From: Candidatus Micrarchaeota archaeon
GTDB taxonomy: Archaea > Micrarchaeota > Micrarchaeia > Anstonellales > Bilamarchaeaceae
Assembly (NCBI GenBank): GCA_041694885.1
Contig: JBGFRX010000008.1
Coordinates: forward strand, 1-61,191
Direction: 5' to 3'
Length of the DNA stretch: 61,191 nt
The notes beneath the pieces were generated by a model. It saw only the letters and a list, made by a program, of their open reading frames with translations, was not told where the DNA came from and ran no database searches. Numbering within the stretch: position 1 is the stretch's first letter; each line of letters begins with the position of its first letter. Position numbers and translations under genes: made by a program. Of the stretch, positions 7 through 40,169 are shown piece by piece.

Positions 7-705
7 CTAAATTTTCTCCAATACCTTGGTCTCGTTCTGGCCCGCGGTAAGCTTGTTTATCTTATCATAGAATTCGCCCTGCGCTCCTGCGGGGATCTCT
101 ACAACTACAATGAGGGAGCCGTCGTTCGCCCAGTGCTCCTTCTGCATTCCCCACGACTTGAAGGTTCCGTAGGAGCGGTGTGCGTATTCTGGAGGAATCT
201 TCACTGCTATTCTTAATTTCTCGAATTTCAAAGGAATTATCGCTCTTATTTCCTTCAGAATGTCGGAAAGCTGATCGCGCGCGTCTCTGAACGGATCGAT
301 GCGGATTCTCGCCTTTTCGAGTGCCTCCTCTATCCTCGTCTGCGTGTGCGGCGCATTCGTCCTTGGGTCTATCGTCTCCTTCATGAGAATTGCTACTATT
401 TGCCTGTATTTCTCCTCTGTTTTTTTCCTTTTCTGCTCAGTAGTGAGCTGGAGGTTTCCCTTCTTTAGGATCGTCTCGAGTACCTTCATCAAATCTGTGG
501 TGCCAAACGCCTTCTGCACGTCCTGTGATTTCGCCTTCTCGGCTTTCTTCGCGTCCGAGTATATCTCCTCCACAACAAAGATGTTTTTCGTATCCGGCTT
601 CCTACCCTCCTTGTACATGTTGGCCATTTCCGGATCAACATAAACCTCGAACACCTTACCTTCTATCGTAATGTCGGCTATTATTGCCTTGTCGAGAGTA
701 GTCAT
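7..705 (-). CDS. sdo1: Ribosome maturation protein SBDS/Sdo1
   Basis: Typical SBDS motifs (FEVYVDP, LQLTTEQKR, IDPRTNAPH, IEEALEKA, IPLKFE). Start set at the internal ATG (MTTLDKA); the ORF track starts at 729. Confidence 0.95.
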   Translation of the reverse strand: MTTLDKAIIADITIEGKVFEVYVDPEMANMYKEGRKPDTKNIFVVEEIYSDAKKAEKAKSQDVQKAFGTTDLMKVLETILKKGNLQLTTEQKRKKTEEKYRQIVAILMKETIDPRTNAPHTQTRIEEALEKARIRIDPFRDARDQLSDILKEIRAIIPLKFEKLRIAVKIPPEYAHRSYGTFKSWGMQKEHWANDGSLIVVVEIPAGAQGEFYDKINKLTAGQNETKVLEKI

Positions 706-831
706 CCCATCATCCACTCGTTTTTTCACGTATTAGCCCTTTAAATTTTTCCAAACCACCAAAAAACCGGAAGCAGTTATTATTTATAAAATTGCGTGTG
801 TAAATATATCCAAAAAGAGGAGATGTTTTGC

Positions 832-2559
832 ATGATTACAGAAAAGCAGCTTGAGCCATTAAAGCAGGGCATTTATAAGGTGAAGGAGCGGAGGGCAGGC
901 CCGCTCATGGAAAATTACACCTCTGCTTCACTCGAGTATTTTTCCGGCATGCTGATGAACCGTATGTACAAGGTGCGCGAATCCGCGTTTTCAGCAATCG
1001 CGAGGCGGCTTAACAATGGAAGCAATGATATGGAGAGGAGAGCAGCGCTCTTTGCAGTGGAAAATGCGTTTTCAAAAGGAATAGACCCTTCACTTCTGCT
1101 GCCTGTAATAGAAACTCTTATCTCTTCCGGCGACCAGGAAACGAGTAAGGCAGCTGCTTCCTTGCTGCGGAATTACGCGCTCAAAACGTATGGAGTGGAT
1201 ATCACATCGAATTGGAAGGAGCTCGGGAATGCGATTTCCGGAAAATATACGGAGAAGGAAATTCCAGCCGGAGTTCCTGCGTTGTTCCAAAAAACATTCT
1301 GCGAACTTGCTCCGAATTCGCTAAAACCGTTTTTGGAACTGAATGAAAGCGAATTTCTGGAAAGGGTGCAGGAAGGAAGAAAAATAATACGGTTGCAGTT
1401 CCAGGGAAGCGAAGAAGTGATTGTTCCTGAATATAAACCGGTTCTCCAATTGGGATATGTTGCGCTTGGAGAAAATGCCCCGAACGTTTCCATATATGCC
1501 CAAGCGGCAGGGGTGCCTGCGACAATTGGTTGCAAAGCGAATGAAATAGCGCCTCTGGAATATGCTCCGCGAACCTTTTCTGCAGAGGCGATAGGCAAAA
1601 CGCTGGAAAAAACAAGGAAAGGGAGGAAGGTGCTGAGAACGCCTTACGAAAAAGGCAGGGGAATTATATGGATTGGTTGCGGACTGCAACCCTCCCTTCT
1701 TGGTCATTCTCCGTCTGCTGCGAATATCATTCCGGTTGCGAAAGCAGAATACCTTCCGATTTGGGCGGGAAAGAATGTGGAGGCGAATGAGGTTGGGGAA
1801 AGATGCGAACGCGGAATTGGTATGATGCCCCATTATCCACGGCTGCGGCTCGTTTACGATGCGCGTGGAAAAGAAATGGAGGATAAAGGGACGAATACGA
1901 AAATAAAAATGCCATGCAAGTTCAGGGAAATAGGAAAAAAGATTGCGATTGGGATTGCCGCGTGCTTCTTGCTCACATTTTCCATAATTATGGCTACTGC
2001 AAGGCAGACGTCTTCTTCGAAGGCAGAGGACTTCTCGCAGTTCAGTCAAAAGTCTGCGTATTTTGCACGAGTGAAGGCGCCTGAACCTGCTCCTGTTACA
2101 GATGCGAACAAAAATGCTGAAGAGAACCAAAAGGAAACTCAGCGCACAGCAGAGACAAAAGTGCCGACTTATGCTCCAAGGGAATACGTGCAATATGCTG
2201 AAGACAGCGCAAAGCAGCACGGTGTCGACCCTGAGCTCGTAAAGGCGATAATAAAGGCCGAATCGAACTGGGACAGTTCCGCGATTTCAAAAAAGGGCGC
2301 AGAGGGCCTTATGCAGCTCATGCCAAACACTGCAGATGAGCTTGGCGTTGAGAACCCGCGCAAGCCGAAGGAAAGCATAGACGGGGGGACGAGATACATG
2401 CGCAAGTTGCTGGACCGTTTTGACGACGACGTGGAACTTGCGCTTGTTGCCTACAATTGGGGGCTGGAAAATGCAAAGAAATATGCGAAAGGTGAAACCG
2501 GGCTTCCGGCCGAAACGAAACAATATCTGGGAAAAATCAGGAAGGATTACGATTTTTAG
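832..2559 (+). CDS. Membrane-anchored protein with C-terminal lytic transglycosylase (SLT) domain
   Basis: C-terminal AIIKAESNW..AISKKGAEGLMQLMP..GGTRYM..ALVAYNWG is the SLT signature. It is preceded by one hydrophobic segment (IAIGIAACFLLTFSIIMATA). The long N-terminal region is unassigned. Start uncertain (796/823/832). Confidence 0.85.
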   Translation: MITEKQLEPLKQGIYKVKERRAGPLMENYTSASLEYFSGMLMNRMYKVRESAFSAIARRLNNGSNDMERRAALFAVENAFSKGIDPSLLLPVIETLISSGDQETSKAAASLLRNYALKTYGVDITSNWKELGNAISGKYTEKEIPAGVPALFQKTFCELAPNSLKPFLELNESEFLERVQEGRKIIRLQFQGSEEVIVPEYKPVLQLGYVALGENAPNVSIYAQAAGVPATIGCKANEIAPLEYAPRTFSAEAIGKTLEKTRKGRKVLRTPYEKGRGIIWIGCGLQPSLLGHSPSAANIIPVAKAEYLPIWAGKNVEANEVGERCERGIGMMPHYPRLRLVYDARGKEMEDKGTNTKIKMPCKFREIGKKIAIGIAACFLLTFSIIMATARQTSSSKAEDFSQFSQKSAYFARVKAPEPAPVTDANKNAEENQKETQRTAETKVPTYAPREYVQYAEDSAKQHGVDPELVKAIIKAESNWDSSAISKKGAEGLMQLMPNTADELGVENPRKPKESIDGGTRYMRKLLDRFDDDVELALVAYNWGLENAKKYAKGETGLPAETKQYLGKIRKDYDF

Positions 2560-2609
2560 CCTGGAAATTGGGTTTAAAAACATTTGTTAGTATTATCTTC
2601 TAATTTAAT

Positions 2610-2650
2610 CCGCCAGGACTACTCATCGCGAACGCGAACAGAGTAGGAGG
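2610..2650 (+). promoter_or_regulatory. Putative L1-binding autoregulatory hairpin in the rpl1 leader
   Basis: CC-GCCAGGA-CUACUC...GAGUAG-GA-GG: a 6-bp stem plus asymmetric loop that contains the GGAGG SD just upstream of the rpl1 ATG. Confidence 0.55.
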
Positions 2651-2660
2651 AACGATTTAT

Positions 2661-10599: not shown

Positions 10600-10811
10600 G
10601 GAATTCCTTGCAACTACCAGACTTTATCGGTGAACGATAAAGTTTTGGAGGTGATCTATCCGCAGGTTCCCCTACGGATACCTTGTTACGACTTAGCCCT
10701 CCTCACGCATCTTCAATTCGAACCAGGCAAGAACCTGGGCCTCATCGAAAACGCATTTGGATGACTTGACGGGCGGTGTGTGCAAGGAGCGGGGACGTAT
10801 TCACCGCGGTA

Positions 10812-10854
10812 GTTCACCGGCGCTAACCATCCTCGAAAGGCGTGTTAAGACCGT
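10812..10854 (-). other. 16S intron, 43 nt (about E. coli position 1363)
   Basis: BHB: UCAU/GUGA helix, bulges CA|A and AC|U; excision restores the loop UCAUCAU of h43. Confidence 0.85.
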
Positions 10855-11020
10855 TGATGAACCGCGATTACTAGGGATTCCACGTTCACGAGGGTGAGTT
10901 TCAACCCTCGATCCCAACCAAGACCGGATTTGAGAGATTAGCTTCGCCTTTCGGCGTTGCGACCCGTTGTTCCGGCCAATGTATGCCGCGTGTAGCCCAC
11001 AGGATTCGGGCCATACTGAC

Positions 11021-11133
11021 TTCGGTTAACTATGCTGCCCAGAATAACATTTGCGGTTTCCAGTTTTCCGTTCCCAGTTCTGAAACAGGAAACCAACTCT
11101 AAAAAACCATGCGTACCCATTCAGCATATCTAT
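11021..11133 (-). other. 16S intron, 113 nt (about E. coli position 1197)
   Basis: BHB: CGGU/ACCG helix, bulges AG|A and AA|G; excision restores GACGGUAG|GUCAGUAUG. Confidence 0.9.
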
Positions 11134-11257
11134 CTACCGTCGCCCACTCCTTCCTCCCATTTAACACGGGCAGTCCCTTTAGAGTGCACCCCGTCCTGAG
11201 ACAGAGTTGGCAACTAAAGGCATGGGTCTCGCTCGTTGCTGGACTTAACCAGACAGT

Positions 11258-11281
11258 TTGTGCTCCCGCTTGGTACGGGAT
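11258..11281 (-). other. 16S intron, 24 nt (about E. coli position 1080)
   Basis: GUGU/GCAC helix, bulges GA|A and AA|A, upper stem UCCCG/CGGGA; restores GUGA-AC-UGUC. Confidence 0.8.
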
Positions 11282-11407
11282 TCACACCACGAGCTGACGA
11301 TGGCCATGCAGCACCTCTCGGCTTGTCAGGCAAGATCTTCAGTCTGGCCTTCATACTGCCGTCGCCTGTGGTGAGGTTCCTGGCGTTGTATCCAATTGAA
11401 CCGTAGC

Positions 11408-11627
11408 TTGTGGAGTAATAAGGAATCTGATTTTCTCAATTTCGTTTTCGAAAATAATAAATCAAATACTTCTGCTTTGGTTTTGTTCGCTGCAATCGCG
11501 CATTCGATAACATATTTATTGTCGATAATAAAATCGAAATTTCATGCCTTTTGTCAAACCGCCTTTTGTTTTATCCGCGAAAATCCCAAAATTTTCGAGC
11601 CGGTTGTGTTTGAATTCCTTCTTACCT
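11408..11627 (-). other. 16S intron, 220 nt (about E. coli position 947), with nuclease-like ORF remnant
   Basis: GUGG/CCAC helix, bulges AU|A and AA|G. The spliced AUGCU is complementary to GGCAU at about 1231-1235, supporting the junction. Confidence 0.88.
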
Positions 11628-11628
11628 A

Positions 11629-11671
<43 letters not shown>

Positions 11672-11786
11672 AGCTTGCGCTCGTACTCCCCAGGCGGCTG
11701 ACTTAACAACTACTCTACAGCACTTCTGCAGCTTACGCTGGAGAAACACCGAAGTCAGCATCATTTACAGCTGGGACTACTCGGGT

Positions 11787-11894
11787 TTTTAGTGTCCGGA
11801 GAAATTTCACTAAACGTTTTTTCTTTGACGGATGTCCAAAATGAATTATATCGTTAAATTTTCGCAACCATTCTTTAGTGTTTCTCTGGAACAA
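11787..11894 (-). other. 16S intron, 108 nt (about E. coli position 793)
   Basis: UUAG/CUAA helix, bulges AU|U and AA|A; restores the universal GGAUUAGAU|ACCC. Confidence 0.9.
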
Positions 11895-11958
11895 ATCTAA
11901 TCCGATTTGCTCCCCCAGCTTTCGTTCCTCACCGTCGGACGCGTTTTGGGAAGACGCC

Positions 11959-12004
11959 TTAGCAAAACTTTTTGGGCACGCACCTGAAAATCTCCAAAAA
12001 GTTT
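11959..12004 (-). other. 16S intron, 46 nt (about E. coli position 729)
   Basis: GGCG/UGCU helix, bulges AA|A and AA|G, long stem AACUUUUUGG/CCAAAAAGUU; restores GGCGAA|GGCG. Confidence 0.85.
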
Positions 12005-12251
12005 TTCGCCACTGGAAGTCCTTCTAGGCTCAACGCATTTTACCGCTACCCCAGAAGTACTTCTTCCCTCCCCCGCTCCCAAGTCCCGCAGTATCCACTG
12101 CACGCGTTAGGGTTAAGCCCCAACATTTCACAGCGGACTTACAGGACCGGCTACGAACGCTTTAGGCCCAATATTCGTGGGTACCACTCGAGGCGCTGGT
12201 ATTACCGCGGCGGCTGCCACCAGTCTTGCCCACACCCTTATTCTCCTAGCT

Positions 12252-12276
12252 CTATAACCAGCCGTGTGACAGCTGT
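12252..12276 (-). other. 16S intron, 25 nt (helix 17 region)
   Basis: GUAA/UUAU helix, bulges AA|A and AG|A; restores CUAGUGUAAAAAGCUAG. Confidence 0.72.
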
Positions 12277-12772
12277 TTTTACACTAGGCAAAAGGCATTG
12301 GCAAAGCCAATACCACTCAGAGTTCCCTCGTCACGCTTACGCGCATTGCGAAGGTTTCGCGCCTGCTGCATCCCGTAGGACTATGGCCCTTGTCTCAGTG
12401 CCATTCTGGGGGCCACCACTCCCATGGCCCCTACGGATTATCGGCTTGGTAAGCCGTTACCTTACCAACTACCATGATCCGCCGCAGTCCCATCCTGGGG
12501 CCGTTTGCTCCGATTCACAAACGGTTTCGCCCGTCAGGCATTCCAGCGTAGACGGACTATCGCGGGTTGTCCTCAGTTTCCCAAGGTTGTCCGCGTCCCG
12601 AGGTTAGGTTGACTACGTGTTACTCAGCCGTCTGCCGCGCATCCAAGTGAATGCGCTAACTTGCATGGCTTAATCGAACTCTGATAGCAGTACCCTCCAG
12701 CAGGATCAACTGGAGTTACGAATTCAGGAAGTTATCTTTGGAATTGACAAGAGAGTTTGAATAATTCCCCTC

Positions 12773-13467: not shown

Positions 13468-13578
13468 GCCTCGGTGGTGTAGTGGTCAGCATTACGGCCT
13501 GTCACACGCCGCGAAATCCATTCTGAATTTTCGCTGCGGGCGATGTCGTCGACTCGGGTTCGAATCCCGACCGGGGCG
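13468..13578 (+). tRNA. tRNA-Asp(GUC) with 39-nt intron, best placed at 38/39 (13506-13544)
   Basis: GCCUCGG/CCGGGGC acceptor, G73, ACGGC-CUGUCAC-GUCGU after splicing, UCGGG-UUCGAAU-CCCGA T-arm. Helix UGUC/GGCG with bulges AC|A and AU|G. Confidence 0.88.
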
Positions 13579-38257: not shown

Positions 38258-40169
38258 TTCTCCCTGGTTTTTCCAATTGCTTTTTGGCGTCGAATGGAGA
38301 GTACATAAGCTTAATCAGCTGCGGCAATTCCCCCATTAGCCGCTTTTCCGTTGTCGCAGTTTGGGATGTTGTCCTTGCCCTTAGTCCCCTTCCGCCACTC
38401 TTTTTATTCCTTTTCGTGGGAAATATTACATCGCTTTTCTTGCACTTAGATAAGTCAGCAGTGGTTTTCTTTCGGGCCCCTAGCTCAGCTTGGCCAGAGC
38501 GGCGGACTCTTATTGTTTCGGGTTTCGGGTTTTGGGTTTTGAAGCCCTTTCCGGACCTGGGATATCCGTAGGTCACGAGTTCAAATCTCGTGGGGCCCGT
38601 TTCTTTTATGTTTTTCTTCCTTTCGCTTGTTTTTGGCACTGGTTTCGAGTTTTGTATCTTAGCTTTCGCCTTAGTACTTTTGGCGCATGCACAATTTCCC
38701 TTCCTTACTTTGGGGCTCATAATGCCCCCATCTGTTTTGGGCACCCGCACGTCTTTTTTAGGCAAATTCAGTTTCCTGGCGTCTTTTTCGCGTCCCATCT
38801 TTTCATCTGCCTTCTTCTTTCTTTTATTTATTTCAGGAACACATCCCGCACTCAGTCCACCCTCTCCGGTTCTGCTGCGCACATTTTGCCCAACCTTGTC
38901 GCGCCTTTTTTTCTTCCTTTTATTTAAGGGAGGCGCGCCTTTCGGGGCATTCATCCCCTTATCTTCATCAGGAGCCATTTTTTTCTCCCAAGCCCGCTTA
39001 GATTTCCCGAGCAAATCAAAATTTGTAATACCCTTGCCTTCTTTCTGCTGTTCGCAACCCCTCTTCTTTTTAGTTAATCCCGCAGCTCCGCCTCCAGAGG
39101 AATCATGCCTTCGCTCACCTGAGTCATTATTTCCAGTTCCATCCGTTTCCAAGCTCTTTCCGTGCCGGATATTGTTTTTTCCTGCGTTTCCATTACCATC
39201 ATATTTTTTGGAAGGAATTTGCGAAATTTCCTTGGCTGTTTCGGCTCGGCTTGTTTTTTGGTCCGCAGTGAGCAGTGCGTCAAACGCAACAACTGCGTTG
39301 TCCCCTTCAATTCCCAAAACTCTCATTCCAAGAAGCCGGCTTATTTTTTTGTTTGCAAGCCATGCAGCCCTATTGTATTTCCTGAATTCGGGCCTCTCCT
39401 CCTCCCATTCGAAACAGTCCCCACCTACTTTTTGCTTTAATAGCGCCAGACCAGTGGCTATTTCGCTTGCTTCCCTTACATTTGGTCCACTTTCACTATC
39501 TATCATAGCAGCAGGAGCCCGGAGCTCATTCACTATCTGATCCATCGCCCTCATCGCCTCAAGATAAGCGCCGATGAACTGGAATTCGGAAAGTTCGGGC
39601 TCCCTTATCAATGCTGCAGTACTTAGTACCTTCAACTCCTCTTCTCTTGCGGTTTTGCATAGCGTAATTTTCAAGTCGAGCGCTTTCTGCTCGGAAACAG
39701 GGCAGGAGCCGCCCCCAGGTAATCGCATAAAAGAAGGAAGGTCCGACGTCCCGAATTTCGTATCATCCTGTATCTTTATTCCCTTTAAGTTTTCCGTAAC
39801 TATTATTTCGTTAACGCCGAGAAAATACGCCTTTCCGCCAACCATTACGTATGGAAGACCGCTCTTCCCATGCCCAAAGTCCGTGTAAAACTGTATGTTG
39901 TCAAATTCCCTGCCTTTGAAGATTATCTTGTATACGAATTCACCTATCTGCGATTCCTTTGTCATACATTTCCCGCGTTCGTCCTCGCCAAATGCCCTTT
40001 TCACTTCGCTTTGGACAGTGCTGCCGTTTTTCGCATAAATCCAGTACACTTCCTTGTTTCCCCACCTGTCCACGAGCGGAAGCGCTATTCTGACGTAATT
40101 CCGGTCGCCGCTTCTGTCCTTTCCGATGACGTTGTTTTCCTTGTATAATTTAGCAAAAGAAAAAGACAT
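38190..40169 (-). CDS. Large hypothetical protein; Lys-rich low-complexity C-terminal half; frame runs antisense through tRNA-Lys
   Basis: The N-terminal half reads like a globular protein. The true 3' end is uncertain because the frame overlaps tRNA-Lys and the cysS end. Confidence 0.5.
   Translation of the reverse strand: MSFSFAKLYKENNVIGKDRSGDRNYVRIALPLVDRWGNKEVYWIYAKNGSTVQSEVKRAFGEDERGKCMTKESQIGEFVYKIIFKGREFDNIQFYTDFGHGKSGLPYVMVGGKAYFLGVNEIIVTENLKGIKIQDDTKFGTSDLPSFMRLPGGGSCPVSEQKALDLKITLCKTAREEELKVLSTAALIREPELSEFQFIGAYLEAMRAMDQIVNELRAPAAMIDSESGPNVREASEIATGLALLKQKVGGDCFEWEEERPEFRKYNRAAWLANKKISRLLGMRVLGIEGDNAVVAFDALLTADQKTSRAETAKEISQIPSKKYDGNGNAGKNNIRHGKSLETDGTGNNDSGERRHDSSGGGAAGLTKKKRGCEQQKEGKGITNFDLLGKSKRAWEKKMAPDEDKGMNAPKGAPPLNKRKKKRRDKVGQNVRSRTGEGGLSAGCVPEINKRKKKADEKMGREKDARKLNLPKKDVRVPKTDGGIMSPKVRKGNCACAKSTKAKAKIQNSKPVPKTSERKKNIKETGPTRFELVTYGYPRSGKGFKTQNPKPETIRVRRSGQAELGARKKTTADLSKCKKSDVIFPTKRNKKSGGRGLRARTTSQTATTEKRLMGELPQLIKLMYSPFDAKKQLEKPGRITGFSTWFSSSSRRPQGARRAA
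38474..38599 (+). tRNA. tRNA-Lys(CUU) with 51-nt 37/38 intron (38513-38563)
   Basis: GGGCCCC/GGGGCCC acceptor, GCGGA-CU-CUU-A|A-UCCGU, ACGAG-UUCAAAU-CUCGU. Confidence 0.92.

Follow-up and report, generated by a model that had tools for sequence, protein, structure and literature searches.

In a stretch of 61,191 nucleotides (nt) from the genome of a Candidatus Micrarchaeota archaeon (assembly GCA_041694885.1, contig JBGFRX010000008.1; the whole stretch is called the window in the following), the gene between SBDS and rpl1 encodes a lytic transglycosylase (LT) domain of the SLT/GH23 type. We consider it moderately probable that its product is a tethered surface enzyme which cuts bacterial peptidoglycan, encoded by a laterally acquired, accessory gene of this archaeon. 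According to this reading, the product would be a bitopic (type II) protein with a cytoplasmic orphan half, one membrane helix, a flexible tether of ~56 residues and the SLT/GH23 domain outside the cell. The tethered enzyme would cut the bonds between N-acetylmuramic acid and N-acetylglucosamine (MurNAc-GlcNAc) of bacterial peptidoglycan within reach of the archaeal surface, i.e., its target would be either a contacted bacterial cell, which it might antagonise or whose wall it might open locally to allow attachment or uptake, or the exposed debris of sacculi.

The choice of substrate starts from the host. Neither Mur ligases nor SEDS proteins were found in the 93.6%-complete genome, with both searches being positive in control genomes, and the archaeon thus makes neither murein nor pseudomurein, which bears out the assumption of the original prediction that its host lacks murein. 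The substrate must therefore be either foreign or something other than murein. The most economical candidate is bacterial peptidoglycan, since we are dealing with a canonical and intact domain whose affinity to bacterial or phage sequences is recent. The transmembrane (TM) tether with its linker and the lack of wall-binding modules, in turn, suggest that the enzyme works at the surface of the archaeon, on cells or pieces of wall that touch it, and not in the manner of a bacteriocin that diffuses away.

Catalytic domain

The SLT domain matches Pfam PF01464 with 94.1 bits (E = 5.4e-27, cut-off 21.3 bits) over residues 455-555 and is the only domain of the protein above threshold; in the genome-level search, the same match scores 97.6 bits. 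Its motifs are AESN (residues 476-479), GLMQ (492-495) and AYNWG (540-544), such that the intact domain read from the letters in the original prediction is recovered. Within an alignment of 22 SLT sequences, the E-S pair as well as the Tyr (Y541) and Gly (G544) of AYNxG are invariant, and the Gly and Gln of GLMQ, the Asn (N542) of AYNxG and the C-terminal Tyr Y565 are nearly so. The catalytic E477 aligns with the ES motifs of MltF and of the SLT domain of phage gp41.

When this alignment is supplied, the AlphaFold2 (AF2) model of residues 437-575 reaches a mean predicted local distance difference test (pLDDT) score of 94.4 and a predicted TM-score (pTM) of 0.86. The top Foldseek matches of the model are LtgA (5o1j), MltF (4oxv/5aa1) and Slt (5ohu), with a probability of 1.00, TM-scores of 0.76-0.80 and TMq values of 0.68-0.80. 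On profile score, motifs and lysozyme-like all-alpha fold, the domain is a member of SLT/GH23 family 1. Judged by its residues, it is canonical and looks catalytically intact.

Profile searches add phage relatives to this picture. The best PHROG is phrog_2013, a lytic tail protein (121 bits, residues 414-571, profile positions 435-587 of 657), and the PDB sequence matches comprise the phage tape-measure protein gp41 (9b45, the best one with E = 2e-14) and MltF. More narrowly defined families do not include the protein: it scores 69.1 bits for the NCBIfam MltF equivalog (NF008112, cut-off 354), for which the catalytic part alone matches, and 83.3 versus 234 bits for the flagellar assembly lytic transglycosylase BB0259 (NF047373, positions 532-663 of 705). 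The SBP_bac_3 regulatory module was not found in the protein by Pfam.

Distribution and origin of the domain

SLT domains are patchily distributed in the phylum and far from unique to this genome. They exceed the Pfam cut-off in 23 of 61 close relatives and, at E <= 1e-8, were detected in 47 of the 301 phylum genomes sampled, representing 34 of 129 genera. This makes the gene less surprising than it was in the original prediction, all the more since the same inference has already been published (see below). Regarding the whole protein, no close relatives were found in GTDB genomes.

The nearest SLT domains show 47-56% identity and are located in two proteins on phage-like contigs (P0004 and P0011) and in one bacterial SBP-SLT (MltF-like) protein. 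Within a tree of 38 SLT domain sequences, the copy studied here is placed in a polytomy together with phage, bacterial and archaeal sequences and is part of no supported clade, be it archaeal or otherwise. The phylogeny that had been proposed as a check thus yields neither a supported clade nor a donor, which cannot be named given such a tree. Nevertheless, since the nearest domains are phage-like or bacterial and the best profile is that of a lytic tail protein, lateral acquisition of the SLT module from the bacterial or phage gene pool appears to be the best explanation.

Among related Micrarchaeota assemblies, some SLT proteins look virus-derived. One example, encoded on a contig of 2.8 kb (G051:C191, locus L025), has 532 aa, resembles a tape-measure protein and carries its SLT domain at the C-terminus. 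Furthermore, G051:C18 and G043:C1 (L003/L004) share an SLT protein of 390-530 aa that has no signal sequence and carries a conserved, unrelated N-terminal domain.

Domain architecture and topology

The protein has no N-terminal signal sequence. Its single TM helix (residues 371-389) is preceded by six K/R among 15 residues and followed by two among 15. Given this K/R excess ahead of the helix (positive-inside rule) and the missing signal sequence, an N-in/C-out orientation is predicted, i.e., a cytoplasmic N-terminal region and an SLT domain outside the cell; the outside location is a prediction from the one TM helix and its K/R flanks. Helix, linker (residues 390-445) and the 370 residues on the presumed cytoplasmic side agree with what had been described before. 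The linker is modeled as low-confidence coil in both AF2 models and is probably disordered.

By sequence comparison, the N-terminal region (residues 1-370) is a true orphan and the sole unusual part of the protein. A word-indexed search of 5.8 billion clustered proteins returned matches confined to the SLT part and none for this region, and an exhaustive phmmer search of 1.84 billion representatives identified no genuine homologue. The sole phmmer match (P0009) was discarded: it stems from the translation of a tandem repeat, in which a short motif matches 10 times and thereby inflates the score. We found neither a paralogue within the own genome nor a match in the fetched loci nor an internal repeat; the same-genus genomes do not show the region, and PHROGs (no match for the first 372 aa) and PDB hold nothing similar. 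When Pfam matches with E up to 10 are considered, residues 51-116 resemble DNA_alkylation (E = 0.0017), HEAT (E = 0.022) and Arm (E = 0.12), all of which are sub-threshold. DNA_alkylation is itself a HEAT-like repeat fold.

The single-sequence AF2 model of the full protein has a pLDDT of 36.5 and is unusable for a fold search. Residues ~1-180 are predicted to be helical at low confidence, with residues 51-116 being the only N-terminal part with pLDDT >50, and the remainder of the region has no confident prediction. Of the helical N-terminal region described in the original prediction, helical character is thus retained for about the first half at low confidence, and no fold could be assigned.

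We also compared this architecture with 30 SLT-bearing open frames of related genomes. Most of them are 190-380 aa long, in about half the SLT domain is preceded by a hydrophobic segment (mostly near the N-terminus), and none (0/30) has a long region before the membrane helix. The N-terminal region might serve in interactions with other proteins or in localisation, or it might be without a role, both of which are conjecture.

Reading frame and start signals

The reading frame is free of stops across positions 796-2559 (+). We translate from ATG 832; alternative starts are ATG 823 (the public gene call, 578 aa) and GTG 796. A start at ATG 832 is reasonable, since the genome uses similarly placed Shine-Dalgarno (SD) sites: rpl1 of the same window shows GGAGG (2646-2650) at a similar spacing from its ATG 2661. 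Further upstream, the TATA-like box TTTATAAA is located ~40 nt 5' of ATG 832, a spacing that would fit an archaeal promoter with a short leader. A scan for bacterial-type promoters and terminators found nothing above the shuffled expectation, its model not being applicable to archaea. The features of the gene and of its surroundings are listed in Table 1.

Table 1. Features of the gene and of the window. Positions refer to the window; residue numbers refer to the translation from ATG 832.
Feature	Position	Strand	Basis or remark
SBDS	7..729	-	neighbour of the gene
TATA-like box TTTATAAA, candidate archaeal promoter	783..790	+	direct sequence reading
Shine-Dalgarno-like GAGGAG	817..822	+	9 nt 5' of ATG 832
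Whole gene	832..2559	+	575 codons + stop; open reading frame, translation from ATG 832
N-terminal orphan region, residues 1-370, predicted cytoplasmic	832..1941	+	homology searches, topology prediction
Weak HEAT/Armadillo-like helical repeat stretch, residues 51-116	982..1179	+	sub-threshold Pfam matches
Single TM helix IAIGIAACFLLTFSIIMAT, residues 371-389	1942..1998	+	Kyte-Doolittle 2.35 over 19 residues
Linker, 56 residues (390-445), Pro/Ala/Glu/Lys/Thr-rich	1999..2166	+	sequence composition
SLT/GH23 lytic transglycosylase domain, residues 455-555	2194..2496	+	Pfam PF01464; folded part reaches ~residue 573
Catalytic Glu477-Ser478 (GAA TCG), ES motif	2260..2265	+	alignment; E477 = GAA 2260-2262
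Archaeal SSU rRNA gene	10646..12716	-	~2.07 kb vs 1,478-position model
Over-long tRNA gene	13468..13578		111 nt; probably intron-bearing
Over-long tRNA gene	38474..38599		126 nt; probably intron-bearing

A frame of 575 open codons is far beyond chance. We further assessed its coding quality via codon log-odds trained on the genome's own long open reading frames (ORFs), with the gene cut into five segments. Frame 0 scores positive and both other frames score negative in all five of them; the values are, in order, 0.34, 0.21, 0.12, 0.11 and 0.47, compared with a genome mean of 0.42 (standard deviation 0.18). That is, there is one intact gene at this site, as had been assumed. An antisense ORF of 299 aa (1321-2220) was rejected as a gene given its coding score of -0.05.

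Gain and loss between SBDS and rpl1

Within the genus, the interval between SBDS and rpl1 takes several states. It is empty (~150 nt) in genomes G004 and G006. In G007, it encodes a protein with PD40 repeats whose N-terminal segment is hydrophobic. In G005, we find a remnant of 494 nt that corresponds to the last ~110 codons of the gene, spread over two frames and 57-59% identical. The coverage of the respective contig is ~1x, and the frameshift may thus be an error; the deletion of ~1.45 kb is not. A 5' end common to this relic and the long form (MFC vs MMYC) was considered and dropped, as the DNA alignment is unconvincing. Beside rpl1, a CarboxypepD_reg-domain protein and a 287-aa orphan are encoded in G002, another membrane protein in G001 and a different gene in G003; for these three genomes, SBDS was not found in the fetched stretch, i.e., the interval is not fully delimited.

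The slot consequently carries other cargo in no fewer than one same-genus genome and probably in four. Given empty intervals, other cargo and a relic across the genus, the gene is an accessory one with gain and loss, which was present in an ancestor of at least two species and lost or eroded elsewhere. We saw neither an integrase nor a flanking repeat at the slot. Thus, one genus documents gain and loss at a defined chromosomal site with the states empty, other cargo, intact gene and relic, in keeping with the arms race that has been suggested for peptidoglycan hydrolases of archaea.

Substrate and alternative readings

Several points weigh against a tethered enzyme for bacterial peptidoglycan. 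The known cultured Micrarchaeota partner with wall-less Thermoplasmatales archaea and are not known to do so with bacteria. A physical interaction with Thermoplasmatales is described in PMC5864196. No murein-binding module (LysM, SPOR, PG_binding) was found in the protein by Pfam, and AnmK is missing from the genome. The latter weakens pure scavenging, since canonical anhydro-muropeptide recycling is not encoded. The outer membrane of a diderm bacterium would shield its murein from a tethered enzyme. Furthermore, the gene is a singleton that is lost or decaying in sister species and may hence be of little use, and any function of the N-terminal region, for which no homologue was found anywhere, is pure conjecture. 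A surface enzyme that acts on bacterial murein, as put forward in the original prediction, is nonetheless the best reading given the canonical domain and the lack of own murein; its scavenging variant gains no support from AnmK, which is absent.

The alternative that survives best, although unlikely, is that the gene is a neutral or decaying leftover of a transfer, i.e., an SLT domain fused to a lineage-specific frame within a variable slot, with an N-terminal region that has no function. A variant assumes that the sole product is a short form begun at Met360. With its 216 aa, this form would resemble the related archaeal SLT proteins, which are mostly of 190-380 aa with an N-terminal anchor, and the N-terminal region is an absolute orphan whose coding score is weakest (0.12) at residues 241-360. 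Decay is also what the truncated two-frame copy in G005 and the empty sites of G004 and G006 would lead one to expect. On the other hand, such a leftover should hardly retain a stop-free frame of 575 codons that has a TATA box of its own and, at the long-form start, an SD site at a suitable distance, that outscores the other frames in every segment and that keeps all catalytic motifs intact. Concerning the short form, a single GGAGG (1878-1882) is located upstream of Met360, and the 26 nt between its end and the ATG are too many for an SD site. The sole difference within the gene between two independent assemblies (see below) is synonymous, which also speaks against decay; being one site, it has little weight.

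Next in order, and likewise unlikely, is a repurposed SLT domain that cuts a beta-1,4-linked N-acetylhexosamine (HexNAc) polymer other than murein, e.g., chitin, chito-oligosaccharides, an exopolysaccharide, a glycan that belongs to an archaeal partner, or one from the envelope of the archaeon itself. GH23 enzymes have been crystallized with chito-oligosaccharides (MltE with chitopentaose, 4hjy; MltD with chitotetraose, 8rhi), and PMC12352652 cautions that catalytic domains of this kind may have further substrates. A genome without own murein and without AnmK is in line with this, and a divergent Cys-rich SLT-like core gene of the order (see below) hints at a lineage-specific role of the lysozyme fold for which bacteria are not required. 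However, the copy studied here is not divergent: it is 47-56% identical to murein-cutting domains of phages and bacteria and keeps every family-1 motif. Moreover, it belongs to an accessory, recently exchanged gene rather than to a conserved tool of the lineage, and no chitin-binding module was found in the protein by Pfam.

A far-reaching extension of the tethered-enzyme reading would assign the orphan half a role as a coupling module to intracellular machinery or to a contact site, within a contact-dependent device that breaches the wall of a bacterial partner or prey. We regard this as a long shot. If true, it would provide direct genetic evidence for episymbiosis or predation of an archaeon on bacteria, the archaeon being this non-acidophilic member of the Micrarchaeota; the hosts known so far for the phylum are all archaea without a wall.

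Relation to known systems

Among the closest known systems are the bacterial family-1 LTs, with MltF and Slt of P. aeruginosa, LtgA of Neisseria, and Slt70, MltC and MltE of E. coli. They have the same catalytic fold and the same ES, GLMQ and AYNxG motifs as the archaeal protein, whose SLT domain is 30-37% identical to the catalytic module of MltF. The bacterial enzymes are located on the outer face of the cytoplasmic membrane, which is predicted for the archaeal protein as well. In contrast to them, the latter resides in a murein-less host, shows neither the SBP_bac_3 module of MltF nor the superhelical U and L domains of Slt70 nor a lipobox, and would be anchored by an internal TM helix that follows an orphan, putatively cytoplasmic region of 370 aa.

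The top profile and structure-sequence matches are SLT lysins of phage virions (phrog_2013; phrog_342, an internal virion protein with an endolysin domain; gp41 of 9b45). The archaeal protein matches them in the SLT module alone and is without the tape-measure or virion part, i.e., it is no member of this group. While phage lysins are encoded in viral clusters, the archaeal gene is chromosomal and accessory, has its own predicted promoter and is located among SBDS and ribosomal protein genes.

Within DPANN archaea, including Micrarchaeota, both the concept and the inference are already in the literature. Murein-like lytic transglycosylases are discussed with the same inference, namely that they serve to attack bacterial walls or to attach to them, in PMC8204110 (citing Rinke 2013 and Castelle 2015), where fam00969 of Pace- and Woesearchaeota is described as group-specific and up to 3,000 aa long. 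The same inference was drawn for lytic murein transglycosylases of Woesearchaeota (PMC9723730) and of three Micrarchaeota genomes (PMC5864196). These proteins share the domain, the superphylum and, for PMC5864196, the phylum with the one studied here. By their descriptions, on which the comparison is based, they are large extracellular (up to 3,000 aa) or Sec-secreted proteins, whereas the protein studied here has 575 aa, is putatively bitopic and is a singleton. Since no full-length homologue was found in any database searched, a membership in fam00969 beyond the shared domain is unlikely.

Murein-degrading enzymes of other classes were also acquired laterally by murein-less archaea and show patchy gain and loss. 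Examples are the M23 peptidoglycan hydrolases of Halogranum salarium, two archaeal enzymes that were experimentally shown to kill a bacterium (PMC12352652), and the GH25 muramidase of Aciduliprofundum boonei, for which killing of bacteria was likewise shown (PMC4241558). The patchy gain and loss of archaeal peptidoglycan hydrolases was interpreted in terms of arms-race dynamics (PMC12352652). In contrast to the protein studied here, which would be tethered and has no binding module, the M23 and GH25 enzymes are of another catalytic class, secreted and mostly modular with wall-binding domains.

New aspects are thus limited to three: a bitopic architecture in which the orphan half is predicted to be cytoplasmic, a protein that is a singleton, and a variable slot where a relic was documented. 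Should the enzyme act on bacterial murein, there would be a further case within the growing evidence for DPANN archaea interacting physically or antagonistically with bacteria and not only with archaea. The tethered, module-poor architecture suggests an action that is contact-dependent rather than diffusible. The gene does not stand for a new principle; its value is that of a clean and well-documented case in which the catalytic residue can be tested.

Genomic context and host assignment

The gene is followed by rpl1, rpl10/P0, P1 and the genes of a TctA-family transporter and of an RtcB with an intein. Its neighbourhood within the window shows no phage or viral genes, and the location between SBDS and rpl1 is thereby confirmed by the annotation of the neighbours. 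The relatives of the SBDS protein are all titled Candidatus Micrarchaeota, and the SSU (small subunit) rRNA gene on the contig is archaeal. The genome has a size of 0.92 Mb with an estimated contamination of 0.07%. GC content is uniform along the window, and both GC content and codon usage match the genome. An independent assembly (GCA_041695005.1) shows the same SBDS-gene-rpl1-rpl10-P1 arrangement with 2 differences in 5122 nt (99.96% identity); the proteins encoded by the two copies of the gene are identical.

One might suspect that the segment is a contaminant from a bacterium or virus, or that the end of the contig was assembled into a chimera, since the gene lies within 2.6 kb of the left end of the contig and phage-type and bacterial-type sequences are its best relatives. 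Both are effectively excluded by the flanking genes SBDS and rpl1-rpl10-P1, which are found in every readable same-genus genome, by the relic of the same gene at the same site of another species, by the junctions shared with the second assembly, by the genome-like GC content and codon usage, and by the archaeal 16S rRNA gene on the same contig. The archaeal host assumed from the start is thus corroborated.

A second lysozyme-fold gene and further observations

The same genome encodes a second, divergent SLT-like protein of 857 aa that is rich in Cys and has a lipobox-like N-terminus (C38:13929-16499, minus strand; locus L002:514-3084, minus strand). Its gene is located directly downstream of a partner ORF of 1761 aa (C38:16588-21870, minus strand).

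Full-length orthologues of the Cys-rich protein are found throughout the genus, family and order, and 125 of 301 genomes of the phylum show the family at E <= 1e-10. Invariant are an E-S pair (here E519-S520), a GLxQ motif (here GLAQ) and ~20 cysteines. All 12 family members compared (12/12) match Pfam SLT weakly, and an alignment of the family with SLT using hhalign yields a probability of 96.9% (E = 1.7e-10). Among the top PDB matches of the family profile, the first four are lytic transglycosylases and the fifth is an uncharacterised protein.

That is, the Cys-rich family is core, vertically inherited and highly divergent, whereas the gene between SBDS and rpl1 is canonical, accessory and, by its affinities, laterally acquired. 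They represent two lysozyme-fold proteins in one genome that are not paralogues in a recent sense. Lysozyme-fold proteins are hence a core feature of the order, to which the gene studied here adds an extra canonical copy of apparently lateral origin.

Two minor observations concern RNA. The excess length of the SSU rRNA gene implies ~600 nt of insertions. Finally, a conserved leader AATCCGCYAGGACCACTCATC...GAGTGGGAGGAACGATTTAT with inverted-repeat character is located 5' of rpl1 in all genus members (window positions 2600-2660; G004, G005, G006), which we take to be a possible autoregulatory mRNA site of archaeal L1 that mimics the L1 binding site of 23S rRNA.

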